Shown: piece by piece, positions 474-57,820 of the stretch | How positions within the stretch are numbered: the stretch's first letter is position 1 | Layout: each line of letters starts with the position of its first letter | Assembly (NCBI GenBank): GCA_963766975.1 | Contig: CAVYCF010000012.1 | Location: 32,859-96,858, forward strand | Reading direction: 5' to 3' | Length of the DNA stretch: 64,000 nt | From: an uncultured Acidobacteriaceae bacterium | Lineage (GTDB): Bacteria; Acidobacteriota; Terriglobia; Terriglobales; Acidobacteriaceae | The notes under the pieces: model-generated | Databases searched by the model: none | What the model was told of the DNA's origin: nothing | The model's input: only the letters and a program-made list of their open reading frames with translations | Translations under genes and position numbers: made by a program

Positions 474-2032
474 ATGCCTACCATCATCCGCCAGGACGAC
501 GTTATCCGCTCTGTAGCCGACGCGCTGCAGTACATCAGCTTCTACCACCCGGTGGACTACATCACCAACCTGGCGCGCGCGTACGAGGCCGAGCAGTCGC
601 CCGCCGCGCGCGACGCCATCGCGCAGATCCTCATCAACTCGCGCATGTGCGCCGAGGGCCACCGCCCCATCTGCCAGGACACCGGCATCGTCACCGCCTT
701 CGTCAAGGTCGGCATGGAGGTGCAGTGGCAGCCCTCCGCCGCCCACGGCATGCTCTCCATGCAGCAGATGATCGACGCGGGCGTGCGCGAGGCCTGGCTG
801 AACCCCGACAACGTGCTGCGCGCCTCCGTCCTCGCCGACCCCGCCTTCTCCCGCAAGAACACGCGCGACAACACGCCCGCTATGGTCGTCGTCGAACTGG
901 TCGCCGGCTCAGGTCTCGACATCACCGTCGCAAGCAAGGGCGGCGGGTCGGAAGCCAAATCGAAGTTCGCCATGCTCAACCCGTCGGACTCCATCGTCGA
1001 CTGGGTGCTGAAGACCGTGCCCACCATGGGCGCCGGCTGGTGCCCGCCCGGCATGCTCGGCATCGGCATCGGCGGCACCGCGGAGAAGGCGATGACTCTT
1101 GCCAAACAATCCCTCATGGACCCCATCGACATGCAGGACCTGCTCACCCGCCGCGCTTCCGGCGCAACCGCTCACCAAGATCGAAGAGCTGCGCATCACC
1201 CTCTACGAAAAGATCAACGCGCTGGGCATCGGCGCCCAGGGACTGGGCGGGCTGACGACAGTTTTAGACATCAAGATCCTCGACTACCCCACCCACGCGG
1301 CCAACCTGCCCGTCGCGATGATCCCCAACTGCGCCGCCACGCGCCACCTGCACATCCATCTCGACGGCAACGGCCCCGTTGCTGTGGCCCCGCCCGATCT
1401 CTCCCTCTGGCCGAAGCTCACCTACGCGCCCACCAACGCCCGCCGCGTGGACCTCTCCACCGTCACGCGCGCCGACGTCGCCACCTGGCAGCCCGGCGAG
1501 GTCGTCCTGCTCACCGGCAAGCTGCTCACCGGGCGCGACGCCGCGCACAAGCGCCTGACCGACATGCTCAACCGCGGCGAGGCGCTGCCGGTCGACTTCT
1601 CGAACCGCTTCATCTACTACGTCGGCCCGGTGGAGGCCGTGCGCGACGAGGCCGTCGGCCCCGCCGGCCCCACCACAGCGACGCGCATGGACAAGTTCAC
1701 CCGGCAGATGCTGGCCCAGACCGGCCTGCTGGGCATGGTGGGCAAGGCCGAGCGCGGGGCGGAGGCAATCGACGCCATCCGCGAATACTCCGCCGTGTAC
1801 CTGATGGCCGTCGGCGGCGCGGCCTACCTGGTCTCCAAGGCCATCCGCGCGGCAAAGCGTACTGGCGTTTGAGGACCTCGGCATGGAGGCCATCTACGAG
1901 TTCGACGTGGTGGACATGCCGGTCACGGTGGCGGTCTCGGCCGATGGAGTGAGTGTGCACACTACCGGCCCGGCGGAGTGGCAGGCGAAGATTGCGGCGC
2001 AGTCATTACCGGGAGCGCCGGTGCTTCAGTAA
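474..2032 (+). CDS. fumA: Class I (Fe-S) fumarate hydratase, with two +1 frameshifts (~1166, ~1858)
   Basis: Three frames join into one protein: MPTIIRQDDVIRSVADALQYISFYHP...PICQDTG...KGGGSE (474 frame), TKIEELR...GIGAQGLGG...TGRDAAHKR...GPTTATRMD (1099 frame), and LAFEDLGMEAIYEFDVVDMPVTVAV ending at TAA 2030-2032. Confidence 0.93.
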
Positions 2033-2134
2033 CGAGACGGTGGCACAACTTCTTGCGCACGGCATCCTAAGGAGAGGTAGAATCACGGCAAGTCAAGAAC
2101 CAAGGTATCCGCTGCATCAAACATCGCGGAGAAG

Positions 2135-2317
2135 ATGCCAATGACCAAACGAGAGATCGAGAACTTCAATCGGTTCATAGACGCGCTTGCTGAGACAATC
2201 GGCATATCCCGGAAGCAGCTTGAACGAATCATGTTTCAAGGGCAGTCAGAGCCGCACAAACCAAAATCGAGAAAAAATGGACATCCTCGAACACGATCAC
2301 TGCAAGCGGTGAAATGA
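2135..2317 (+). CDS. Small hypothetical protein (60 aa) overlapping the ATPase start
   Basis: Its TGA overlaps the ATPase ATG (ATGA at 2314-2317). No family recognised. Confidence 0.35.
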   Translation: MPMTKREIENFNRFIDALAETIGISRKQLERIMFQGQSEPHKPKSRKNGHPRTRSLQAVK

Positions 2318-3627
2318 AGTACTACGTCTATATTGATAATTTCCGCGGCTTCAGCGACACATGTGTCGAAATACTCGACGTGAATTTTCTAGTCGGTGAA
2401 AACAGCACTGGCAAGACTTCCTTCCTGGGGCTTCTGAAGCTTCTGTCCGGACCGAATCTGTTTTTTGGTCAACGATTCGACAATGAGCACATTGGGTTCG
2501 GTGGCTTCTCGGATATCGTGAGCGCGCACTCAAGCGACCGAAGTTATTTTCGCATTGGCTTCGCATGGGAAGAAGCCCCCGAGAAGAAGGAAAAGCCTCG
2601 TGTCACAGGCTGTCTCCTGACCTATACCGAAGAACGGGGACTGCCCTTCCTTTCGCAATGTACGTTTAGTCGGAACGGGAGCGTCATATCATTGCGACTT
2701 GGCAAGACGTGCATTACTCAATCGATAAATACAATGCAGCAACCGCAGACGAAATGATCTCCACTCTTCGCAAGGTGTGGGTGCGTGAGCATTCCGGTAA
2801 GGAAAAAAAATTTACAAAACTTGCGGTGCCGCCGTCGATGAAACGTGGGATGCCTGTATTGGTGGCATTGTCCTTCATCATGGATCGGAGCAAACAGCAG
2901 GTAAAGGGAAACAAGGTGGAATTGTTCCCTCCGGACATAGATTTTTTGCCCGATCTAATTTGGCTAGCCCCGATCCGGGCAAAAACAAAACGCATTATGA
3001 TCGCTGACACAGGAGACATTCTCTCCCGAAGGGGCACATACACCCTATTTGATTCGGAGAATACTGCGCACACCATCTCAGAAATCTGCAATCAAGCTGC
3101 GTCATGCGTTGGAGAAAATTGGAAAAGCAAGCGGACTTTTTCAAGAAGTCAGAATCAAGCCATATGGCCGGACTGCCAACGCGCCATTTGAGTTGGACAT
3201 TGTTCTCGATGGTAAAGCCCTCAACGTTAGCAATGGGGGGTATGGAGTTTCTCAGGCATTGCCGGTCATTGTCGAAGTACTCTTGAGAGCCTCTGGTACA
3301 TGGCTTGCAATACAGCAACCTGAGGTTCACCTTCATCCGAGAGCACAGGCTGCCCTAGGTGATCTCTTCTTCGAGATGGCAACTACAGATGAGAAGATTT
3401 TCTTGGTGGAAACGCACAGCGATTTCACCATTGATCGATTCAGGTTGAACTATAAGGGCAACAAATCAGCCAAAGCTTCCGGCCAGATCCTCTTCTTTGA
3501 GCGTAAAGACAAGCACAATGTCATTACCCCACTTGAAATCGGAAAGAACGGGGAACTGCCAACAGATCAACCAGAGAGCTATAGACAGTTCTTCATCAAA
3601 GAGCAATTGAGACTGTTAGACGTCTGA
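2314..3627 (+). CDS. ABC-type/AAA_15-21 ATPase (COG4938/DUF3696-like), frameshifted at ~2709 and ~2995-3000
   Basis: N-terminal YIDNFRGF and Walker A GENSTGKT. C-terminal GYGVSQALP, Walker B IQQPEVHLHP and H-loop VETHSD. The three ORF pieces join into ~438 aa. The region is visibly AT-richer than its flanks. Confidence 0.85.
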
Positions 3628-3630
3628 ACC

Positions 3631-4110
3631 ATGTGCGCAATCGTTGATTCATGCTGCCTCGCAATGGTTTTCGACCGCACGAACAAGGAGCACCCGCGCT
3701 TTGAACCTCTGTTCAGTTGGATCAGTGGCAGTGGTTGCCTAATTTACGGTGGCACGGGCTACAGAGCCGAACTTGAAAAACTTCCGCGCTATTTGGCACT
3801 CATTGTCGAGTTGAGAAAATCTCGCCATGCAGTCTCCGTCTCAGATTCAGAAGTAGACAAAATTGCAGCGGAATTGAAAAAGGAATATCCCGATCCACGG
3901 TTCAACGACCCGCACATCGTCGCTTTGGCACTAGCCTCAGGATGCCAAGTGGTATGTACAAACGACGCGACTGCTATCAATTACCTGAAACGTCTTGTCA
4001 TTTTTAACGGACGCGGGCTCAAGAGGCCAAGCATCTATCGGGGACACAAGAGCCACCACAAGCTATGCTGCGACAAAAAGATTGTCGGAGCGTGTAGAGA
4101 TCGCGGTTAG
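3631..4110 (+). CDS. PIN-fold nuclease-like protein
   Basis: N-terminal AIVDSCC strand-Asp, a central Glu (RAELE) and NDPHIVALALASGCQVVCTND, the usual PIN acidic-tetrad pattern. It starts 3 nt after the ATPase stop. Confidence 0.75.
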   Translation: MCAIVDSCCLAMVFDRTNKEHPRFEPLFSWISGSGCLIYGGTGYRAELEKLPRYLALIVELRKSRHAVSVSDSEVDKIAAELKKEYPDPRFNDPHIVALALASGCQVVCTNDATAINYLKRLVIFNGRGLKRPSIYRGHKSHHKLCCDKKIVGACRDRG

Positions 4111-4129
4111 ATGCATGCGGCCCTGGGTC

Positions 4130-4452
4130 CTACGCCGCGCCTACTACCCTCACCCGCCCCACTCCTTTCGCCCGCGCCCGCGGACGAATCTCGATCACCA
4201 CGTCGTGCTCCAGCGCCGTGACAAAGTGCATCAGCCGCTCCACGGAGAAGCCCTCCAGCTTGTAGCCCTTCAGCGCCGACACCTTCGGCTGATTCCGCCC
4301 AGCGCCCGCGCCGCCTCGACCTGCGTCAGCCCGCGGCCCTCCAGAATGCGGTTGATGGCCACGCACAGCCGCAGCTTCGTATCCAGCTCCTCCGCATTCT
4401 TCAGCCCCAGGTCGCGAAACACATTCCCGCTGCTTTCCGTCACTTTCGCCAT
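4130..4452 (-). CDS. XRE-family HTH protein (HigA/HTH_37-like antitoxin), frameshift at ~4293
   Basis: MAKVTESSGNVFRDLG...GLTQVEAARALG joins NQPKVSALKGYKLEGFSVERLMHFVTALEHDVVIEIRP. Confidence 0.8.
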
Positions 4453-4498
4453 ATCCCAATTCTAGGATAATGCTTCGGGAAAGACGCCAGATCGGAAG

Positions 4499-4518
4499 GG
4501 CACGCCTTCAGGCGTGCC
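4499..4518. repeat. REP-like perfect hairpin ggcacgcc-ttca-ggcgtgcc
   Basis: Perfect 8-bp inverted repeat with a 4-nt loop, in an intergenic position. Confidence 0.6.
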
Positions 4519-4739
4519 GTAAAAGACCTGGCCGAAGGCTTGGCTTTTGACTGTGCGGAGCATCAGCTCTGCACGAGAGCGCTGAAGGCGCGAAATATAC
4601 CAGCCTAGGTCGGAGCCGATTCCAACGAGCTTTGCTCGTTGGTACGGCGCAGGCCAAGGAAAGAATCGCCGCGCAAGCGCAAACACGCTGCGAAGGCCGA
4701 GCGGAGAGGCGCAGCGACAGAATTGCTTTCACGCGTGCA

Positions 4740-4811
4740 GCGCGTCGAGAACCGTACGAAGTAGCGCGTCGAGAACCGTACGAAGTACCGTGTCGAGAGC
4801 GGCACGAAGCA
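4740..4811 (+). repeat. 24-bp tandem repeat: two exact copies and one degenerate copy
   Basis: gcgcgtcgagaaccgtacgaagta at 4740-4763 and 4764-4787; ccgtgtcgagagcggcacgaagca at 4788-4811. Confidence 0.85.
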
Positions 4812-5115
4812 CCTGTCAAGCCCCGAAACCACCTATCTCGCTCACCCGCCTGACGATAGAGTTGGCATGATAGTTATGCTCCGCCAGCTACAATAGAAGT
4901 AGAGAGAAAAGCAGGAATAGAAGCAAATAGAAGTAGAGAGAAAAGCAGGAATAGAAGCAGTGAGAAAAGCAAGGTCCGCCGCGCGCGGGCCCTGTCTGTT
5001 TAGGGTATCCAATTGAAAACAAGGGCGTTCCTAAATAACTTCTGTGAAATCAATCACGAGAAATAAACCCTTCCAAATCAATCATCTGGAAAATCCTATA
5101 GGGGGAGGGGGGTAC
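4812..5115 (+). repeat. Dispersed modular non-coding element, copy 1
   Basis: By hand, 4812-4899 aligns without gaps to the reverse complement of 55283-55370 (62/88), and 5050-5115 aligns to the reverse complement of 55112-55177 (47/66). Confidence 0.75.
4892..4959 (+). repeat. 34-bp exact tandem duplication, purine-rich
   Basis: aatagaagtagagagaaaagcaggaatagaagca occurs twice back to back. Confidence 0.9.
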
Positions 5116-5132: not shown

Positions 5133-5336
5133 TCATCCCGCTGCTCGCTCGGCGTACTCGCGGCAGGAGCGGCGGTGCTTCTCGAGGTCGAGCGCGGCTT
5201 TGACCTTGCGCTCGGCCTTCTGGCGCGCGCGGTTGCGCAGGCCGGCCTCGGTCAGTCCCAGCAGCAGATCCGGCGCGTCCTCCTGCTCGGACGACACGAT
5301 CGCCTCCTCCAGCTGCATACAGGTCTTGCACGTCAT
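5133..5336 (-). CDS. Small hypothetical protein with N-terminal CxxC and C-terminal HxxxC
   Basis: MTCKTCMQLEEAIV...LEKHRRSCREY, 67 aa, with host-like GC-rich codons. Confidence 0.5.
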   Translation of the reverse strand: MTCKTCMQLEEAIVSSEQEDAPDLLLGLTEAGLRNRARQKAERKVKAALDLEKHRRSCREYAERAAG

Positions 5337-5818: not shown

Positions 5819-6031
5819 ATGCGTACAAACCGGATCCATGTAGCCATTGCACAGGGAAACAATCGGTATGAGATATGCCACCTGACGTCCAAGGGTGTCC
5901 ACATCATCCACAAGCGCGGCGAGCGCATGGAGGACTCCATCAATCGGGTGCTGGGAATGCTGCGCCCGCTCGCGCCTGTGGCTGCGATCCAACGGAGCTT
6001 AGCCTCCGCGGCGGTAGCCAGTCCCGCCTAA
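5819..6031 (+). CDS. Small hypothetical protein (70 aa)
   Basis: GGAG lies upstream of the ATG, and the ORF ends 22 nt before the barrel gene. Confidence 0.4.
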   Translation: MRTNRIHVAIAQGNNRYEICHLTSKGVHIIHKRGERMEDSINRVLGMLRPLAPVAAIQRSLASAAVASPA

Positions 6032-6053: not shown

Positions 6054-6932
6054 GTGTGGATGAACAGATTGCAATGGATGGTCCGCGCGGGAGCGGGCGT
6101 AGTGTTGGTGTGCGCGCTGAGCGCAAAGGCACAAACCCAGACAACAGACTCATGGCTTACGCGCTGGCAGGCACGCGCTACGGAGACGCAGGCCGCACAG
6201 CCGCACTGGGCGACGCCTGTGGCCACCTCGACGCCGAGGATTGACCAGGCGCAGCGTGCGGAGTTCTCGCGCCAGACGAACGCCGCCGGCTATCGCACCT
6301 GGGACCTGGGCAACAGCAAAGGCCTCGAGCTGATCCCAGCGCGGCGCACGGAGCTGATCCTGGGCACGCCGCCGTTCTTTGAGCACGCGCAGCCCGGCGT
6401 GAAGAATGGCTTTGGCGATATGTGGTTGCAGGCCAAATACCGCATGGCCGCAGGCAATGAGCAGCACGGCAACTATGTGGTGACGGCGGTGCTGTACGCG
6501 ACGATCCCGACGGGGAAAGATGCGAACGGCATCTGTTGCGCGGTGGTGACTCCTGCGCTGGCCGCGGGTAAAGGCTGGGGGCGCTGGGCGGTGATCTCCA
6601 CGCTGAGCGGAACGCTGCCGGTGACCAATGTGCACGGCCTCGGGCATACCATCGCGTGGAACAATGTGGCGGAATATCGCGTGGGGGCGAAGGGCTTTGC
6701 GAAGCTGCTGACGCCGGAGATCGAGACCAACTCGAACTTCTACCGCGGCGGCGCCAACGACGGAAAGACGGCAACCTTCCTGACGCCGGGCCTGATCTTT
6801 GGCCGCATCCCGTTGACTCACGCCGCGACCGGCCGGCGCGCGCTCACGCTGGCCGCCGGCGAGCAGATCGCCGTAACGCACTATCACGCTTACAACCACG
6901 GGCTGATCGTCTCAGTGCGGATGCCGTTTTAG
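6054..6932 (+). CDS. Exported putative outer-membrane beta-barrel (MetA-pathway-like transporter), paralog 1
   Basis: Signal peptide (AKA-Q), GFGD..LQAKY motif, alternating amphipathic strands and C-terminal Phe (VRMPF). Confidence 0.65.
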   Translation: MWMNRLQWMVRAGAGVVLVCALSAKAQTQTTDSWLTRWQARATETQAAQPHWATPVATSTPRIDQAQRAEFSRQTNAAGYRTWDLGNSKGLELIPARRTELILGTPPFFEHAQPGVKNGFGDMWLQAKYRMAAGNEQHGNYVVTAVLYATIPTGKDANGICCAVVTPALAAGKGWGRWAVISTLSGTLPVTNVHGLGHTIAWNNVAEYRVGAKGFAKLLTPEIETNSNFYRGGANDGKTATFLTPGLIFGRIPLTHAATGRRALTLAAGEQIAVTHYHAYNHGLIVSVRMPF

Positions 6933-7485: not shown

Positions 7486-8364
7486 ATGAGGCGACGTTCT
7501 TTTGCTTTCTCGATATTGGTGAGTGGGGCTGTGTTGTTTGGGGCTTCGGCGGTGCAGGCGCAGACAGGAGATTCCTGGATTGCGCAGTATCAGGCGCGGG
7601 TCACGGCGACGCAGAGCGCGCAGCCGCACTGGGTAACGCCGCTGGTGACGGTGACACCGCGGCTGGAGCAGGAGTTTCGCACCGATTTTGTGCGGCAGAC
7701 CAACGCGAAGCTGTATGAGACGTGGAATTACGACAACAGCAAGGGATTGGAGATCATTCCGGCGCGGCGGATTGAGCTGCTGTTCAACCTGCCGCCCTTC
7801 TTCGCTCACCAGCAGCCGGGAGTGAAAGACGGCTTCGGCGATGTCTCCTTCAACAGTAAGTTCCGCATCTTTGCGCGCAATGAAGAACATGGTAACGCGA
7901 TTCTGACCGCCTTCTTCGCCGCAACTGTTCCGACAGGAAAGAACAGCAACGGAAGTTGCTGTGCAGTAGTGACTCCAACGATTGCGGGCGGCAAGGGTTG
8001 GGGGAGGCTCGACGTGACGTCGACGATGGGCGGTTCGCTGCCAGTGACCAATGGCAAGGGGTTGGGCCACACTATCGTATGGAACAACGTCGCCCAGTAC
8101 CGGGCGGCGAAGACGGGCGCGGCGCGGTTCTTCTGGCCGGAGATGGAGTTCAACTCCAGCTTCTTCTCCGGGGGCGCGAACGATGGCAAGAAGATGACGT
8201 TTGCGACGCCGGGGCTGATTGTCGGACGGATTCCACTGGCTCACAATGCTGACGGCACGCCCGGGCGGCTGGGGCTCACCTTTGGCGCGGGCGAGCAGAT
8301 CGCGCTGACGCACTTCCATACTTACAACCACGCGCTCGTGCTGACTGCGCGAATCCCATTCTAG
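7486..8364 (+). CDS. Exported putative outer-membrane beta-barrel, paralog 2
   Basis: Same length (292 aa) and shared motifs with 6054-6932 (AQPHW.TP, NSKGLE.IPARR, CCAVVTP); C-terminal IPF. Confidence 0.65.
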   Translation: MRRRSFAFSILVSGAVLFGASAVQAQTGDSWIAQYQARVTATQSAQPHWVTPLVTVTPRLEQEFRTDFVRQTNAKLYETWNYDNSKGLEIIPARRIELLFNLPPFFAHQQPGVKDGFGDVSFNSKFRIFARNEEHGNAILTAFFAATVPTGKNSNGSCCAVVTPTIAGGKGWGRLDVTSTMGGSLPVTNGKGLGHTIVWNNVAQYRAAKTGAARFFWPEMEFNSSFFSGGANDGKKMTFATPGLIVGRIPLAHNADGTPGRLGLTFGAGEQIALTHFHTYNHALVLTARIPF

Positions 8365-10902: not shown

Positions 10903-12936
10903 TCAGCCCGTGGATTTTTTGTTGCGGGGGCGGGTGAGGAAGCGGAGCGGGGTGCCGACGAAGCCGAAGGCCTCGCGCAGACGGTTGGCGAGGTAGCGCT
11001 CAAAGGCGAAGTGGAGGGGGACGTCGCGGTCGGTGAAGAGGACGAAGGTGGGCGGAGCGACGGCGGCCTGGGTGATGTAGTAGATCTTGATGCGGCGGTT
11101 GAGAGGGACGGGGGCGGACTGGAAGTCGGTGCGGGCGAGGAAGCGGTTCATCTGGCCGGTGGTGACGCGCTTGCGGCGCTCGCGGGCGACGAGAGAGATG
11201 GCGCGGTAGAGGGCGTCGAGGCCAGTGCCGGCGGCGGCGGATAGAAAGACGACGGGCGCGTAGTCGAGGAACTTGAGGCGGGTGCGGAGCTGGGACTCGA
11301 AGATCTTTTGCGAGGCTTTGGGGGTGTTGGACTTGGTGCCCTCCCACTCGTGCGCGTCCCGGCGGTCGTGCATGAGGGGGGTGACGTGATTGTGTGGCGC
11401 GATTTTAGAAGCAGGTCCCTCGACTGCGCCGCGCGCTGACGCTCGCGGCTTCGCTCGAGATGACAAGTTTGTGGTCAGCAGGTCCCACTTGTTGACGACG
11501 ATGATGACGGAGCGGCCGGACTCATGCGCGTAGCCGCCGATGGTGGCGTCGAGCGCGGTGACGCCGGCGGAGGCGTCGAGGACGAGGAGAGCGATGTCGG
11601 CGGATTCGAGGTGGCGGCGGGCCATGACGACGGAGAGCTTCTCGGCCATCAGGCGGGTCTTGCCTTTGCGGCGGATGCCGGCGGTGTCGATGAGTCGCAG
11701 GGCCTGGCCGTTGCGGATGACGAGCTCGTCGATTGCGTCGCGAGTGGTGCCGGCGATGGGCGAGACGATAGCGCGGTCGGAGCCGGTGAGGGCGTTAAGT
11801 AGCGTGGATTTGCCGACGTTGGGGCGGCCGATGATGGCGATGGGAGTTTCTGCGGGGATGTGTTCGGCGTGGCGGGGGTGGTGGGTTGCTGGCTCGTTGG
11901 AGGCGACTTCGCTGACGGCACCGGGGAGCAGTTCTGATCCTGCGGCGGGGCTGAAGTCGGGACCGGTCTCGTCCTCTTCGATCTCGTCGGCTTCAGTGAG
12001 CATGGCTTCCGGTGCGCTGACGGTCTCGGTGGGTTCGGGGAGGACGGCGAAGGCGGCGTCGAGGAGGTCGCCGATGCCGATGGCGTGCTCGGCGGAGATG
12101 GGGATGATGTTTTTGAAGCCGAGGCGGCGGAAGTCTTCGGCGTTGGAGGCGAGGGCGGCGGTGTCGATCTTGTTGACGGCGAGGAAGACGGGCTTGCCGG
12201 AGCGGAGGAGCAGGCGCGCAAGTTCGAGGTCGGGGGCGGCGAGCTCGGTGCGGCCGTCGACCACCATGATGATGGCGTCGGCTTCGGCGAGCGCGGTGCG
12301 GGCCTGACGGAAGATCTCGGCGGGGATGAGCTCGGGGTCGTCGGGGAGGACGCCGCCGGTGTCGACGAGGCGGGCGGTGCGGGCGAGCCATTCGAGATCG
12401 GCGTAGATGCGGTCGCGGGTGATGCCGGGCTCGTCGCCGACGATGGAGCGGCGGGAGCCGGTGAGGCGGTTGAAGAGGGTGGACTTGCCGACGTTGGGGC
12501 GGCCGACGATGGCGATCAGGGGAAGGCCGGTTTCGGATTCGAGGTGGGCGGCGGCTGTGCGGGCGACTCGGGCGTTGAGCGACATTTGCGCGGCGAGGGA
12601 TTCGGCGCGGGACCAGGCAGCGGCCTCGGCGGGGAGCTCGAGGTTGGGATCGTAGGGATCGTGCGCAGAGATGCGGGATTTGCCTCGCGGAGCGTTTGGC
12701 GCGATGGGCTTACTGCGTTCGCGCTCAGGGGATTGCGTGGGGATGTGGCGCTTGGCCTCGGCCTTGCGCCGGTCGGAGGCGATTTTTTTGCGGCCCTTGG
12801 GCGAGGCGTTGGAGACGCTGGCAACGAAGGCGCCGGTGGTGGGCTTGCGGCGCGGGGCGGAGCCGGATTTCTTGGGGCGCGTGGTGGCCTGGCGATGCTT
12901 CTTGCCGAGACGTTTCTTGCTGGGGCGCGGTGGCAT
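10903..12936 (-). CDS. der: Ribosome biogenesis GTPase Der/EngA, with a basic N-terminal extension and an insert in GD2
   Basis: Two GRPNVGKST G1 motifs, DTGG/DTAG, NKID/NKWD and a C-terminal KH-like domain (PPTFVLF). Confidence 0.97.
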   Translation of the reverse strand: MPPRPSKKRLGKKHRQATTRPKKSGSAPRRKPTTGAFVASVSNASPKGRKKIASDRRKAEAKRHIPTQSPERERSKPIAPNAPRGKSRISAHDPYDPNLELPAEAAAWSRAESLAAQMSLNARVARTAAAHLESETGLPLIAIVGRPNVGKSTLFNRLTGSRRSIVGDEPGITRDRIYADLEWLARTARLVDTGGVLPDDPELIPAEIFRQARTALAEADAIIMVVDGRTELAAPDLELARLLLRSGKPVFLAVNKIDTAALASNAEDFRRLGFKNIIPISAEHAIGIGDLLDAAFAVLPEPTETVSAPEAMLTEADEIEEDETGPDFSPAAGSELLPGAVSEVASNEPATHHPRHAEHIPAETPIAIIGRPNVGKSTLLNALTGSDRAIVSPIAGTTRDAIDELVIRNGQALRLIDTAGIRRKGKTRLMAEKLSVVMARRHLESADIALLVLDASAGVTALDATIGGYAHESGRSVIIVVNKWDLLTTNLSSRAKPRASARGAVEGPASKIAPHNHVTPLMHDRRDAHEWEGTKSNTPKASQKIFESQLRTRLKFLDYAPVVFLSAAAGTGLDALYRAISLVARERRKRVTTGQMNRFLARTDFQSAPVPLNRRIKIYYITQAAVAPPTFVLFTDRDVPLHFAFERYLANRLREAFGFVGTPLRFLTRPRNKKSTG
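11335..11381. repeat. REP-like hairpin (GGTGCCC-ended type) in frame within der
   Basis: cccactcgtgcgcg pairs with cgtgcatgagggg, preceded by ggtgccc. The ppc-internal hairpin carries the same end as gggcacc. Confidence 0.55.
11409..11466. repeat. REP-like element in frame within der
   Basis: Left 19 nt identical and right 17/18 nt identical to the intergenic copy at 57705-57759, with the same total length. Confidence 0.85.
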
Positions 12937-48546: not shown

Positions 48547-49161
48547 CTATTTAGCCTTCTCTTTTCTAAATCCTGAGATCGCTCCGTCTAGCCACTTCTC
48601 GTACCACTGCAAGAAGGTGAGCTTGCTCCCGTCTTCGCCACGCTCGGGAGTGATTCCGTTGCCGTCCGCCTGTCTGTCCATCCAAACTTCGCCTGACTGA
48701 GGGCCATTTACGACCAAGAAGAATCGAAGTGCACATCCGTAGTTACAGATGTACACGGCTCCCGGAACGAGCAACCAAGCATCATCGTCGTCAGTAAAGA
48801 CACCATCCTGTTTTTCTGGGTTCTCCCATTGCGTTGGGTTGGTTGCATCTATCCAGCTGAATGGCTTCTTGATCTGGTCGAGGTTGGTGCTGTTTTCTGG
48901 GTCGCGATGATTGAGTTCAAAAAGACCGTAAAACGGCCCCGCCCCACCGTGACCGATTTTCAGAAGGAAATCTCGATACTCTGTGGGTAGCACCGCCCCA
49001 AGCAACTTCTCATGGTTTGCCAATTCAGGAGCCGTCAGTGGAGCTCCCAGCCTATAGCGATGGCTGCTGCTACCGAAGAGCTTGTACGCAGGATCGAGTT
49101 GCCGCAGATCTGCGAGCTTTGCCCGGATGCGCTCGATTGTTGTTTCGTTTTCGCGGCCCAT
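48547..49161 (-). CDS. SMI1/KNR4 (SUKH) immunity-family protein
   Basis: EKLLGAVLPTEYRDFLLKIGHGGAGPFYGL, CNYGC...LVVNG...GEVW and FLQWYEKWLD; AT-richer than flanks. Confidence 0.88.
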   Translation of the reverse strand: MGRENETTIERIRAKLADLRQLDPAYKLFGSSSHRYRLGAPLTAPELANHEKLLGAVLPTEYRDFLLKIGHGGAGPFYGLFELNHRDPENSTNLDQIKKPFSWIDATNPTQWENPEKQDGVFTDDDDAWLLVPGAVYICNYGCALRFFLVVNGPQSGEVWMDRQADGNGITPERGEDGSKLTFLQWYEKWLDGAISGFRKEKAK

Positions 49162-49579
49162 AGATCCTGATCGTACCGGCAATGATTGACCTTCCGAAGG
49201 ATTAGAGTCGTGTAGTCGCCTATCCAGTGATCACAACCTCAGCCGACTCAAGTGAACCAGACTCGTAACCCCCTGTAGTAACAGCCTTTACCTCCCGTTC
49301 ACCCCTGTGAATCCCCGTTCAATGCAGAATCTCGCTGTTCAGCAGAGATTGCTTCGCGCTCAGGCCTCCCGGCCCTAAGCTGAATGCAGAGAAGCATCTG
49401 ATTCAACAGGGGGATAGGCCCTCTTGAACTCAGAGGCGCCGGAACTGAACCTTCCGCCAGCGTCGATCTAAGCCGGCCCCGCAGATTGCACCATGCCCAG
49501 CGATTCACGATCCGGGCAGAAGTAAGAGACAGGATCCCTCGGCCCGTACCGACGAACCAACATCAGGAGAACCTTCACC

Positions 49580-55001: not shown

Positions 55002-55110
55002 GATGGCCCTCCCTCGCGCGCGCCGAGACGGCCCGCCTGAGGACAAGTGTTGCGGGCGCGGGTTGCGGGCGAGTTACTGCACCAATAATTGTGCGAGAAC
55101 GGACCTGTAG

Positions 55111-55370
55111 GGTACCCCCCACCCCCTATAGAATTTTCCACTTGATAGAAAACAGGGGGGTTGCGAGGCGTGATTGAAAACAAACGGCTTATTGTTATCT
55201 CCTTTGGATAGTGTGATTTGTCGGAATGCCAGTTAAATGCGTGAAGCCCGGGCGTGGCTGCCGGGCTTCTTCTGGTTCACTGCTTCTATTTTATCAGGTA
55301 AGGCATAACTGGTATGCCAAGTCGATCATGCAGAGTATGAGAGAGTTAGGGGATTTTGGGGGTTGACAGG
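55111..55370 (-). repeat. Dispersed modular non-coding element, copy 2
   Basis: Reverse-orientation homolog of 4812-5115; includes hairpin aagcccgg...ccgggctt at 55244-55268. Confidence 0.75.
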
Positions 55371-55441
55371 GTTTGGGCGTTAGCGCCTTGGTGCGACTCG
55401 CCCCACCTTAGGATGACGGCGGGCGTCGGCCATTCATCCTC

Positions 55442-56311
55442 TCACAGCTTGTTTTTCCTTCGCGCTCGCTTACGGACGATCTTTGTGAAGCTGCGGCGCT
55501 GCACCTGCTTTGGGTCGCACAGGTATACCTCATAAAGAAGTGGATGGCCAGCGAACTGTCTCTCGGCGGTGCGGTGCGTGATCGATACCTGCGGCGGGAA
55601 TCTTGTCTCTAGCAGAAACACGATTAACTCAGCCGCTGTCCTCCATGCATGGACAAATACGTTTTCAGCCCAAGTAGGTTCGTAGAACTTCTCCACCTGC
55701 GTTACAACGTCGGCGTCCCGATGCTCTAGAGATCTATTACGGAACATCTCCAGGTCTTGTTGCCATTCGCCACGCTGCCTAGGTAGAAATTCCGCGACGT
55801 TCAGCAGGAGATTGCCTCGGTTTTCTGTGACGAATGCTTCCAATCCTGCTTTGAACGTGTCGTCGTCTTGGAAAAGGAAGCCAATGTCGTAGCCGAGAAG
55901 GTCCACGACTTTGAGCATCCGATCCTTATATCCGCGCCATAGAGAAATCGCGAAATCATCGTAGTGCTTCTTGCGGTTCAACACCGGGATTCGCGGATTG
56001 TCTCGGAAGATGCGGATTGCACGCAGATCCTCGTACGCTGGCAGGAAACCTTCCGTGACCATGACCATGATCGCGTCCAATAGCTCCTGCCGGTCCTCAT
56101 CGAAGATGGCCGAAGTGTTGATCAGGTCCTGGATCTCGTCGAAGTAGAAGTCCATGAAGGGTCGATCAGTGGGTGCGGCGGCGAAGTGTGCCTGATCCCA
56201 CTCGTGAGGCTCTTTGCCGCTATTAGTGGTTACGGTGTACAGACCCTGTTCACCACGGATGTACAGCTTTCCCTGTGCCGCAACCATTCCCTTGATTACT
56301 TCATCCTGCAT
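55442..56311 (-). CDS. Hypothetical protein with a possible HEPN RNase motif
   Basis: 289 aa, predicted helical, with FRNRSLEH (R-x5-H); AT-richer than flanks. Confidence 0.55.
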   Translation of the reverse strand: MQDEVIKGMVAAQGKLYIRGEQGLYTVTTNSGKEPHEWDQAHFAAAPTDRPFMDFYFDEIQDLINTSAIFDEDRQELLDAIMVMVTEGFLPAYEDLRAIRIFRDNPRIPVLNRKKHYDDFAISLWRGYKDRMLKVVDLLGYDIGFLFQDDDTFKAGLEAFVTENRGNLLLNVAEFLPRQRGEWQQDLEMFRNRSLEHRDADVVTQVEKFYEPTWAENVFVHAWRTAAELIVFLLETRFPPQVSITHRTAERQFAGHPLLYEVYLCDPKQVQRRSFTKIVRKRARRKNKL

Positions 56312-57060
56312 CGCCTACCTTCACCACCCATCAGATTCGCCCATTATTCGCCCCATGGGCGGGAGGCGTCAATCCACAATACGCCGAGCGATGCATAGCT
56401 GCGGCCTTGACCGCGTCCCATTCAGGATCGAACAGGACGCAGCCATACCGTGTAGCCTGCGAGGCATACAGAACCTTTCTGATAGCAGGCTCACCCCGGC
56501 CCGAGCAGACTGAGGGTGGGAATGCTACCAAATTGGTTAAGCCCACTCGTCTAGAACGGGTGGGTTTAGTCTTAAGGCGTAGCTGCGCCTTAGAGTGCTA
56601 CAAGTGCAGTTTGCCGTTACGAGCGGCTGTTTCCGTGGGGGTATTTACTAGGGATGGTCAACCCCTAGGGTCGATACGCTAGAGAGGTCGTCTCTAGCGG
56701 TTGTCGGTTGGCGATTCCGACCAATCCCGCCGGTTGCCGAAGTGTGATCCTTGTCCTAACACCTGCGGGAAGGCGAATACGCCGCTGGCCAAGATGTAAA
56801 TCGACAAGTGCAGGCTACTCTGCTTGATTGTGGATAAGTTAAATCATCTCAGCAGGATGGAACCTGCCTGGTTAACCTTGTATATGACAAAGTTTGGGGG
56901 TGGCGCGGACCTTCAGCCGGAAGTGGATGAATGGCACGCAATCGATCGATAGCCTGAGATGCGTTGTTCGCCGACGAGGGGGGAGGGTGAGTGACGAAAG
57001 AGGTTCGGATAGCCGATAGGTGTCATCATCCTGTTGCAGAGGGCGGGCTAGGATGCGGGT

Positions 57061-57644: not shown

Positions 57645-57759
57645 GCAGATTCCTTCGCATTGAAGAACAGGATCGAACGCTGCGGAATGACAATAAAAGC
57701 AAACGCAGGTCCCTCGACTGCGCGATTCGCTGACACGAATCGCTTCGCTCGGGATGACA
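57645..57759. repeat. Tandem intergenic REP-like elements (57645-57692 and 57705-57759)
   Basis: gcagattccttcgc...gctgcggaatgaca and gcaggtccctcgactgcgc...gcttcgctcgggatgaca share GCAG...ATGACA ends. Confidence 0.8.
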
Positions 57760-57820
57760 GATTCTTTGGAGTGCGAGGGGATAACGGCACGCGTGAAGGC
57801 GTGCCGTTCCCTTTTGCGGC

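Follow-up and report, generated by a model that had tools for sequence, protein, structure and literature searches.

A dispersed, modular intergenic element with promoter- and terminator-like features in Acidobacteriaceae-type soil and peat bacteria

In Streptococcus pneumoniae, BOX elements are boxA–boxB(n)–boxC mosaics that are thought to influence the expression of neighbouring genes. In enterobacteria, bacterial interspersed mosaic elements (BIMEs), i.e. clusters of repetitive extragenic palindromic (REP) units, with IHF sites (RIB/RIP) lie at gene ends, often between convergent genes, while the Correia elements of Neisseria (CREE/NEMIS) are small intergenic repeats with promoter elements, a terminator-like structure and an IHF site that rewire the transcription of their neighbours. 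Putative mobile promoters are highly similar promoter-bearing intergenic sequences located upstream of non-homologous genes in prokaryotes (PMC3575422). Here we describe an unannotated non-coding element, called the cassette below, that occurs twice in a 64,000-nucleotide (nt) stretch of DNA from an uncultured Acidobacteriaceae bacterium (contig CAVYCF010000012.1; the whole stretch is referred to as the window). Copy A occupies 4812–5115 on the forward strand (304 nt from head to tail) and copy B occupies 55112–55370 on the reverse strand (259 nt), in agreement with the placement given by the original prediction. Both belong to an old, dispersed, intergenic family of 230–300-bp cassettes in Acidobacteriaceae-type soil and peat bacteria. 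From its sequence, we tentatively read the cassette as a dispersed promoter combined with a bidirectional terminator, which would insulate the gene on its tail side.

The cassette functionally resembles the known promoter- or terminator-bearing repeats but appears to fail the tests that define them, namely terminal inverted repeats (TIRs) or a consistent target duplication, high copy number and a long global stem-loop. Like BOX, it is short and intergenic, consists of ordered modules with a variable number of an internal module of ~30–45 nt, and lies in either orientation beside unrelated genes. However, BOX elements are high-copy repeats with long stem-loops and inverted ends, whereas the cassette family is of low density, has neither TIRs nor a global fold, and carries a recognisable −10 hexamer and terminator. 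With BIMEs it shares the pairing of a GC-rich palindrome (a putative bidirectional terminator) with AT-rich sites, which are of IHF type in some copies, but its palindrome lacks a repeated REP unit or tag, its copy number is far lower, and its unique 26-nt head, promoter block and G-run tail are not part of BIMEs; no RAYT-type gene was seen among the window open reading frames (ORFs) scanned. Correia elements have 26-bp TIRs and a TA duplication, and the cassette shows no TIRs and no consistent duplication. Compared with mobile promoters, the unit is much longer, also comprises a terminator-type hairpin, boxes and a tail, and faces a convergent gene in half of its copies. A different likeness is to lambda attP, cer/psi and integron attC sites, with a size of ~250 bp, phased repeats that look like protein sites, IHF-like motifs and adjoining variable, defence-rich DNA; the cassette differs from these in having no adjacent recombinase and no split halves bounding cargo (with a single exception, the related locus L085), and in that the intact unit is chromosomal. 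Integron attC was ruled out, as the cassette has no dyad symmetry. Neither the literature nor Rfam yielded a described repeat, promoter or small-RNA family that covers the cassette sequence.

The order and spacing of modules common to A and B are far beyond chance. The local alignment of the two copies scored 53, compared with 17.3 ± 2.2 in 500 dinucleotide shuffles (z = 16.5) and with at most 26 for random window segments. Alignment of A with the reverse complement of B by MAFFT gave 72% column identity with one large gap, a 54-nt insertion in A, where A is longer by these 54 bases because a 34-nt purine unit is duplicated in tandem. The opening 88 nt align without a gap, as predicted, with 63 identities rather than the 62 that had been counted, and the tails agree at 27 of 29 positions. 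A head profile detects exactly two copies in the window (the match to A covers 4810–4898, E = 7e-18). Within the window the block TTGGCAT-N3-AGTTATGC (TTGGCATnnnAGTTATGC) is unique to A and B, with none expected from shuffles, and the 29-nt tail TGGAAAATnCTATAGGGGGnGGGGGGTAC, searched with up to three mismatches, has these two sites only and no match in 100 shuffles. TIRs joining the two ends were found in neither A nor B, confirming their predicted absence; the complementarity of the C-run head with the G-run tail in single-sequence folds of A and B is of low complexity only. A covariance scan of the window against Rfam gave no match at the gathering score, while at E ≤ 10 copy A had three noise matches (E 2.4–3.7) and copy B none. 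No tRNA gene was found within the window. An unannotated, non-coding and recurrent element with a fixed module order, as originally proposed, is real.

Each copy begins with a head, CCTGTCAAGCCCCGAAACCACCTATC in A (4812–4837; all modules of A are on the forward strand) and CCTGTCAACCCCCAAAATCCCCTAAC in B (55345–55370; all on the reverse strand). Family similarity begins at the first base of the head of A. The head is followed by the TTGGCAT block, which in A is TTGGCAT-N3-AGTTATGC (4862–4879) and lies 21 nt upstream of a −10-type hexamer. The block of B, TTGGCATACCAGTTATGC (55303–55320), is a GGCAT-N7-ATGCC palindrome, and that of A's subfamily is a GCAT-N7-ATGC palindrome. The hexamer reads TACAAT in A (4889–4894) and TAAAAT in B (55288–55293), with TGA before the latter, which gives it the extended −10 form. 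A purine-rich stretch, enlarged in A (4892–4983) by the tandem 34-nt duplication, leads to a GC-rich hairpin. In A the hairpin (4973–4991) has 7 bp, six of them G–C pairs, and is followed by CTGTCTGTTT, which makes it terminator-like; in B the arms GAAGCCCGG and CCGGGCTTC (55243–55269) form 9 bp around a 9-nt loop, with a stem sequence unlike that of A. A 13-nt inverted repeat, GGCATACCAGTTA and TAACTGGCATTCC (55223–55235 and 55306–55318), encloses the hexamer and hairpin of copy B only; it is absent from the other copies inspected. Past the hairpin, two direct AT-rich boxes occupy 5033–5056 and 5061–5084 in A and 55143–55182 in B (cores 55143–55154 and 55171–55182). The original description of two TC(A/T)ATCA boxes in each copy stands, but they are 28 nt apart in both copies (TCAATCA at 5050 and 5078 in A), not 30. 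The tail closes the unit: TGGAAAATCCTATAGGGGGAGGGGGGTAC in A (5087–5115), ending 17 nt before the stop codon of a convergent 67-aa ORF (5133–5336, reverse strand), and TGGAAAATTCTATAGGGGGTGGGGGGTAC in B (55112–55140), with the ATG (55001) of a conserved PHP-like gene following 110 nt downstream. The orientation of B matches that of both its neighbouring genes.

The element is not confined to the two window copies, a possibility on which the original prediction was to stand or fall. When metagenome contigs were scanned once with a degenerate head pattern, 55 loci of soil, rhizosphere and peat origin (related loci carry L numbers below) were retrieved, representing ~50 further distinct copies in ~45 contexts, and most of these 50 copies show the common module order, though they were selected on the head alone. 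The family unit, 230–300 nt long, opens with AAAA-n-CCTGTCAAGCCCCAAAACCACCTAAC (in summary form CCTGTCAAGCCCC...), and conservation starts with the AAAA at −5, with no conserved sequence farther upstream. About 25 variable nt separate the head from GATAnAnTTGGCATnnTAGTT, which contains the TTGGCAT block, and a TAnnnT hexamer 21 nt past TTGGCA is followed by the purine-rich stretch. A strong GC hairpin with flanking A and T runs is present at +95 to +130 in 19–27 of ~45 copies (~60%), its stem differing between copies. Two or three tandem AT-rich boxes of ~30 nt per copy (two to four across the family) precede the G-run tail of GGTACC type, typically GGGGGGAGGGGGTACCCC or CCCCCCGGGGGGTACCCC, which abuts a core gene. 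Copies occur in both orientations relative to genes, and they vary in box number, in the presence of the hairpin and in internal tandem duplications, with some partial copies. Contigs from peat and moss metagenomes match the head only (4812–4847, with two differences) and/or the tail (5078–5113) within unrelated flanks, and one metagenome contig has a different interior of 189 nt between head and tail. Metagenome contigs, orthologous pairs of loci, and L118 and L119, which were reached via the neighbouring protein, provide support that is independent of the search pattern.

The density of the family is low, since the head profile finds two copies in the 64-kb window and, in ~380 kb of fetched contigs, none beyond the pattern-selected copies except for a partial head in L085. 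Searches of plasmid and phage collections by blastn gave no match to the copies, and viral contigs had no match to the tail pattern; 59 matches of the palindrome pattern in viral contigs were attributed to chance by blastn. In a genome collection, the tail pattern AAAATNCTATAGGGGGNGGGGGG, which is too strict on the length of the G run, gave one chance poly-G match in a metagenome-assembled genome (MAG) of Arsenophonus. One metagenome contig has an extra G at 5106, and the lengths of the tail G runs may be unreliable owing to homopolymer indel errors. In a dominant peat population, the TTGGCAT-to-TACAAT block recurs as exact 35–41-mers in unitigs of ~5–7 times the depth of the adjoining contigs, which hints at several identical copies in that genome. 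Unitigs of 35–41 nt with depths of up to 402x (runs X5, X6 and X8) match window positions 4860–4897 at ~86% identity and run on into several different sequences, e.g. TAATATATGGATCGAATTCAGC. The head of copy A is directly preceded, at 4739–4810, by a 24-nt sequence, GCGCGTCGAGAACCGTACGAAGTA, repeated three times in tandem; L069/L076 (two copies) and L111 have related units ahead of the head, and arrays of 7-nt CGAACC(T/A) repeats stand directly upstream of the head in L090 and L102.

The pattern of conservation suggests how the modules may work. From head to hexamer, the alignment of ~40 copies is almost gap-free, and past the hexamer it shows many indels and tandem duplications, the pattern expected of a promoter followed by a transcribed region. 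Positions T1, A2 and T6 of the hexamer are each retained in 39 of 40 copies, with variable positions in the middle, which is the signature of a sigma-70 −10 element; a G at −14 is moderately conserved, and TG is found in B and many other copies, not in A. In 19 copies, the hairpins average ~−19.7 kcal/mol (range −9.5 to −32) and are equally stable on both strands, and 8-nt windows hold on average 4.3 A before and 3.4 T after the stem. Stability on both strands together with A-rich 5′ and T-rich 3′ flanks points to the bidirectional type of terminator, and a simple terminator scan calls the hairpin of A. The hairpin was present in 13 of 16 copies with a convergent tail-side gene versus 5 of 16 with a co-directional one (Fisher p ~0.01), in classes that were set by eye and include some orthologous, hence non-independent, loci. 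It is absent from copies wedged between co-directional genes, e.g. L066/L109 and L098. A multi-site protein-binding platform, one of the interpretations first offered, stays plausible given the rigid head-to-hexamer spacing and the phased boxes.

We outline the following model only conditionally. The left ~95 bp would form a rigid promoter unit, composed of the head, the TTGGCAT block and an often extended −10 element, that fires toward the tail; counted upstream from the predicted start, the head would be ~80 bp and the TTGGCAT block ~37 bp away. Transcription would start in the purine-rich stretch of variable length and then reach a bidirectional intrinsic terminator, past which lie two or three phased AT-rich boxes, some matching the IHF consensus, and a GC-palindromic G-run tail set hard against the neighbouring core gene. 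Beside a convergent neighbour, the cassette would end both the neighbour's transcript and its own short transcript. Beside a co-directional neighbour, the terminator would tend to be lost; the transcript may then run on through the boxes into that gene, with the cassette serving as a promoter, internal or upstream. The tail side, coupled to a core gene, would be protected by the terminator, which would leave the head side as the one where foreign DNA, mostly of defence type, is tolerated and can come and go.

Several observations weigh against this model. The TG of an extended −10 element is found in some copies only, and TTGGCA, which matches five of six positions of a −35 element, lies 21 nt from the −10 hexamer, too far for a normal sigma-70 promoter. 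A consensus scan for promoters picks out ATGATA-16-TACAAT in A and finds nothing in B. The hairpin of B has no good T run and fails the loop and T-run criteria of the terminator scan, and the dependence of the hairpin on gene orientation has to be read with the classification by eye and the shared ancestry of some loci in mind. In two moss metatranscriptomes that contain the window strain, reads fall on the PHP-like coding region only and on neither A nor B; a search for RNA runs of L072 and L094 returned none. Several co-directional tail-side genes appear to have signals of their own: in L104, TTGACC-17-TACACT follows the tail and precedes rplU, and a conserved, promoter- or operator-like GCGCACAATT..GGTGCAG precedes the PHP-like gene. 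Conservation of the head in the 55 loci was partly forced by the search pattern, and L118 and L119, which are independent of that pattern, retain only C(C/T)TGTCAAGCCCC of the head, together with all other modules. Finally, the model leaves the conservation of the boxes and of the G-run tail unexplained and gives no account of how the family reached ~45 contexts while leaving no recognisable signs of transposition.

Upstream of the PHP-like gene, the near-palindromic CGCACAATTnTTGGTGCAG lies at 55077–55095 (reverse strand), ~75–95 nt before the ATG. It is conserved in all orthologous loci examined (L116, L118, L119 and L123–L125) whether the cassette is present or not, and is therefore probably the gene's own operator or promoter. 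Other signals were considered for the cassette and set aside. A working promoter built on the outward-facing TTGACA noted in the original prediction did not hold, since none of the 50 copies has TAnnnT 16–18 nt beyond it. Inspection by eye ruled out a sigma-54 promoter in both orientations, the GG/GC spacing or bases being a misfit, and gave no support to a sigma-28 −10 element (GCCGATAA-like in some copies), an rrn-type boxB–boxA antiterminator after the hairpin, a Xer/dif-like core or DnaA boxes. As a Shine–Dalgarno sequence, the G-run tail has fitting spacing in two or three copies only.

The two sides of the cassette border different kinds of DNA. Over 1 kb, GC content is 0.575 on the head side versus 0.625 on the tail side (Wilcoxon p = 1.7e-4, n = 25), and with defence genes in several loci, the proposal that the TGTCAA end faces AT-richer, defence-type DNA is borne out above chance. 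The variable lower-GC segment on the head side of A (2032–4811) contains an AAA ATPase, a PIN gene, a HTH_37 (HigA-like) gene, a REP-like hairpin and the three 24-nt tandem repeats; the ATPase is NsnB/AriA-like and split over several ORFs. These HigA-like, PIN and AAA-ATPase assignments agree with those made initially. In L122, the segment plus copy A is replaced by unrelated genes. The corresponding lower-GC segment beside B (55371–56984), absent from L116 and L118, contains a 289-aa ORF of no recognised family: sequence searches of Pfam, NCBIfam, PADLOC and PDB gave no family match, so that the label 'HEPN-like' it had been given finds no support there. Head-side genes at other loci include GmrSD/NsnA-like plus Fic (L067), SIR2 plus STAND NTPase (L100), IS110 transposase plus Vsr plus Dcm (L074), and a type II methylase and endonuclease (L078). 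L067 and L100 represent one locus in two relatives, where identity is 83% over the upstream core gene as far as its stop codon, the cargos (3.1 and 3.3 kb) are unrelated to each other, and the cassette is 86.5% identical from its first base to the tail, with unrelated DNA beyond. On the tail side, genes begin 12–110 nt after the tail or have their stop codon 0–20 nt from it; from their N-terminal sequences alone, we take these to be the housekeeping genes rsmA, hisA, rimO, rplU and a glmU-like gene.

Comparison of orthologous sites shows that the cassette is inherited with its locus. The PHP-like protein encoded downstream of B is conserved among Acidobacteriaceae MAGs. In L118 and L119, where it is 85% and 83% identical to that of the window, a strongly diverged cassette is present upstream in matching orientation. 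In L116/L117 (90%), a degenerate remnant of ~90 nt of the right half is found without cargo, and in L123–L125 (74–76%) the head, promoter and hairpin are missing, with at most traces of boxes and tail. The window and L116 differ by one indel, from 56984 down to 55114, which comprises the 289-aa ORF and cassette B and has its edge at the tail end. In the relative L122, which is syntenic with the window at the A locus, the fumarase gene is followed by two unrelated ORFs and then the 67-aa ORF, without a cassette, and homology to the window restarts 23 nt past the tail of A. Presence in L118 and L119 with a remnant or absence elsewhere indicates that the cassette is old and vertically inherited, that it is decaying in some lineages, and that it edges variable segments. 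Between L066 and L109, the head, hexamer region, last box and tail are kept, and between L071 and L078 the hairpin is kept as well; in both pairs, the sequence between the modules has diverged. Judged by these alignments, the cassette at orthologous sites appears to be under module-level selection.

The alternative closest to a promoter–terminator cassette is a family of small-RNA genes, in which the conserved promoter would drive a trans-acting RNA of 40–80 nt with a purine-rich, single-stranded 5′ part and a terminator hairpin, the head and TTGGCAT being regulatory. It would account for the −10 hexamer 10–25 nt before a strong terminator-type hairpin in ~60% of copies, for the rigid spacing upstream of the hexamer and for the promoter block as exact 35–41-mers at ~5–7 times the adjoining depth in the dominant peat population. 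However, the hairpin is missing from ~40% of copies, conservation is lowest and indels are most frequent in the putative RNA body itself, and the conserved boxes and tail downstream of the terminator would be left unexplained; the lack of an Rfam match and of RNA reads from the window strain over A or B points the same way, and we consider small-RNA genes an unlikely explanation. Far less probable, and largely refuted, is a structured cis-acting RNA (riboswitch or leader) or another structured non-coding RNA over the whole unit, also part of the original prediction. The C-rich head can pair with the G-rich tail in single-sequence folds, and B folds with z = −2.25, but A reaches only z = −0.3, the opposite strand of B folds about equally well (z = −1.65), and RNAalifold found no consensus pair from head to hairpin in 18 copies. 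Compensatory variation is limited to the local GC hairpin, the orientation relative to genes is mixed, and nothing beyond noise appears in Rfam at E ≤ 10.

How the cassette came to occupy so many sites bears on two further readings. The first, a non-autonomous mobile repeat resembling a miniature inverted-repeat transposable element (MITE), BIME, BOX or Correia element, would have been spread by a borrowed enzyme and now be decaying, its promoter and terminator being incidental or secondarily used. The ~45 unrelated contexts in both gene-relative orientations, the modular variation (2–4 boxes, an optional hairpin, tandem duplications inside the unit, incomplete copies), the identical high-depth unitigs in one population and the sites that are empty (L122), hold a remnant (L116) or show at most degenerate right-half traces (L123–L125) would fit; the longest word shared by the flanks is also in slight excess (4.64 vs 4.28 ± 0.17, reached by 14 of 500 shuffles), in what is a weak test. 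Against this stand the absence of TIRs and of a consistently duplicated sequence after the tail, the low density (2 copies in 64 kb and only the partial head of L085 extra in ~380 kb), the mere 72% likeness of A and B in one genome with yet fixed motif spacing, the module-level constraint in orthologous copies and the absence of matches in plasmids, phages and viral contigs. A mobile repeat of this sort is therefore doubtful, and the non-autonomous mobile element of the original prediction, read as a classical transposon, finds no support, given the same facts together with vertical inheritance. The second reading, which we hold to be quite improbable, is an att- or res-like landing platform for integrase-poor defence cassettes, with GGCAT-N7-ATGCC or the head as core, the boxes as IHF or arm sites, and cargo inserted on the head side. 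The size of ~250 bp and the layout may recall complex att sites, orthologous sites differ in cargo exactly up to the head, and one cargo contains an IS110-family gene. The IHF consensus WATCAANNNNTTR has eight strict forward matches in 6.5 kb of boxes against 0.15 expected from shuffles, and none in 76 kb of flanks; these matches are, however, confined to 7 of 50 related copies, all of one subfamily and including neither window copy. In L085 (Ga0182024_10435847), a partial head (1–51) and a 330-nt insert, which encodes a membrane-like ORF of ~95 aa on the opposite strand, precede a complete cassette very similar to copy B, so that two heads ~80% alike flank the insert, and three solo heads stop at +51 to +70, i.e. 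at the palindrome. Nevertheless, no integrase or recombinase lies beside either window copy or in most cargos, none of the cargos has a second solo head at its other end, a right half lacking its head was not found in ~440 kb, the palindrome is restricted to one subfamily, and a sharp boundary at the head is expected from any two genomes with different cargo between conserved flanks. By extension, the cassette might be a dedicated organiser of defence hotspots in Acidobacteria, a conserved and multi-copy landing pad and insulator in one, with the head or palindrome as recombination core, IHF-type boxes as architectural sites, insulation provided by the cassette's own promoter and terminator, and integrase-less cassettes swapped beside it; we see only a slim chance that this is so. 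Of the explanations considered, we continue to favour, tentatively, a promoter with a bidirectional terminator that would insulate the tail-side gene.

Among the ORFs scanned between A and B (5.1–55.1 kb), most of those that Pfam recognises are housekeeping genes (miaA, der, ppc, RNase E/G and an HtrA-type protease). The scan detected neither transposase nor integrase domains, and several ORFs have no Pfam match; a 50-kb composite transposon bounded by the two copies was ruled out by this housekeeping interior. The fumarase, NsnB/AriA-like ATPase and HigA-like genes (474–2031, 2314–3627 and 4130–4459) are each split over more than one frame, as either pseudogenes or the result of long-read homopolymer indel errors, and some related contigs (L118, L119 and L121) bear nanopore-style names. 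A 27-nt REP-like hairpin unit, GGAAGGGCACGCCTTCAGGCGTGCCGT, is found at 4494–4520 and 57784–57810, upstream of both heads and in matching relative orientation, at 290 nt from A and 2.4 kb from B. A 55-nt repeat occurs at 11411–11465 and 57705–57759 in copies that are 80% identical. GC skew is negative to ~6 kb, strongly positive (up to +0.31) at 6000–36000 whatever the gene strand, near zero at 36–52 kb and positive after that; the sign change close to copy A, which is preceded by only 6 kb of sequence, may mark a rearrangement breakpoint or a switch related to replication. Near A lies a pair of paralogous 292-aa genes of no known family (6054–6932 and 7486–8364), the products of which are probably secreted or located in the outer membrane. 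A SUKH-1 (SMI1/KNR4) immunity-type gene (48547–49182) sits in a patch of low GC at third codon positions at 48.5–49.2 kb; no cassette lies close to it.

Acidobacteria rank among the most abundant bacteria in soil. To our knowledge, their non-coding genome is almost unexplored, and the phylum lacks genetic parts. If our reading of the cassette is true, the family would provide a ready-made, conserved pair of promoter and terminator for Acidobacteria, together with a sequence marker of variable, defence-rich spots that could be used to mine soil and peat metagenomes for new defence systems. It would also be a test case for a dispersed element that persists under module-level selection across species- to genus-level divergence without the usual signatures of a transposon. 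In summary, the cassette would be valuable mainly for marking defence hotspots and for supplying promoter and terminator parts in a phylum that has been little studied.

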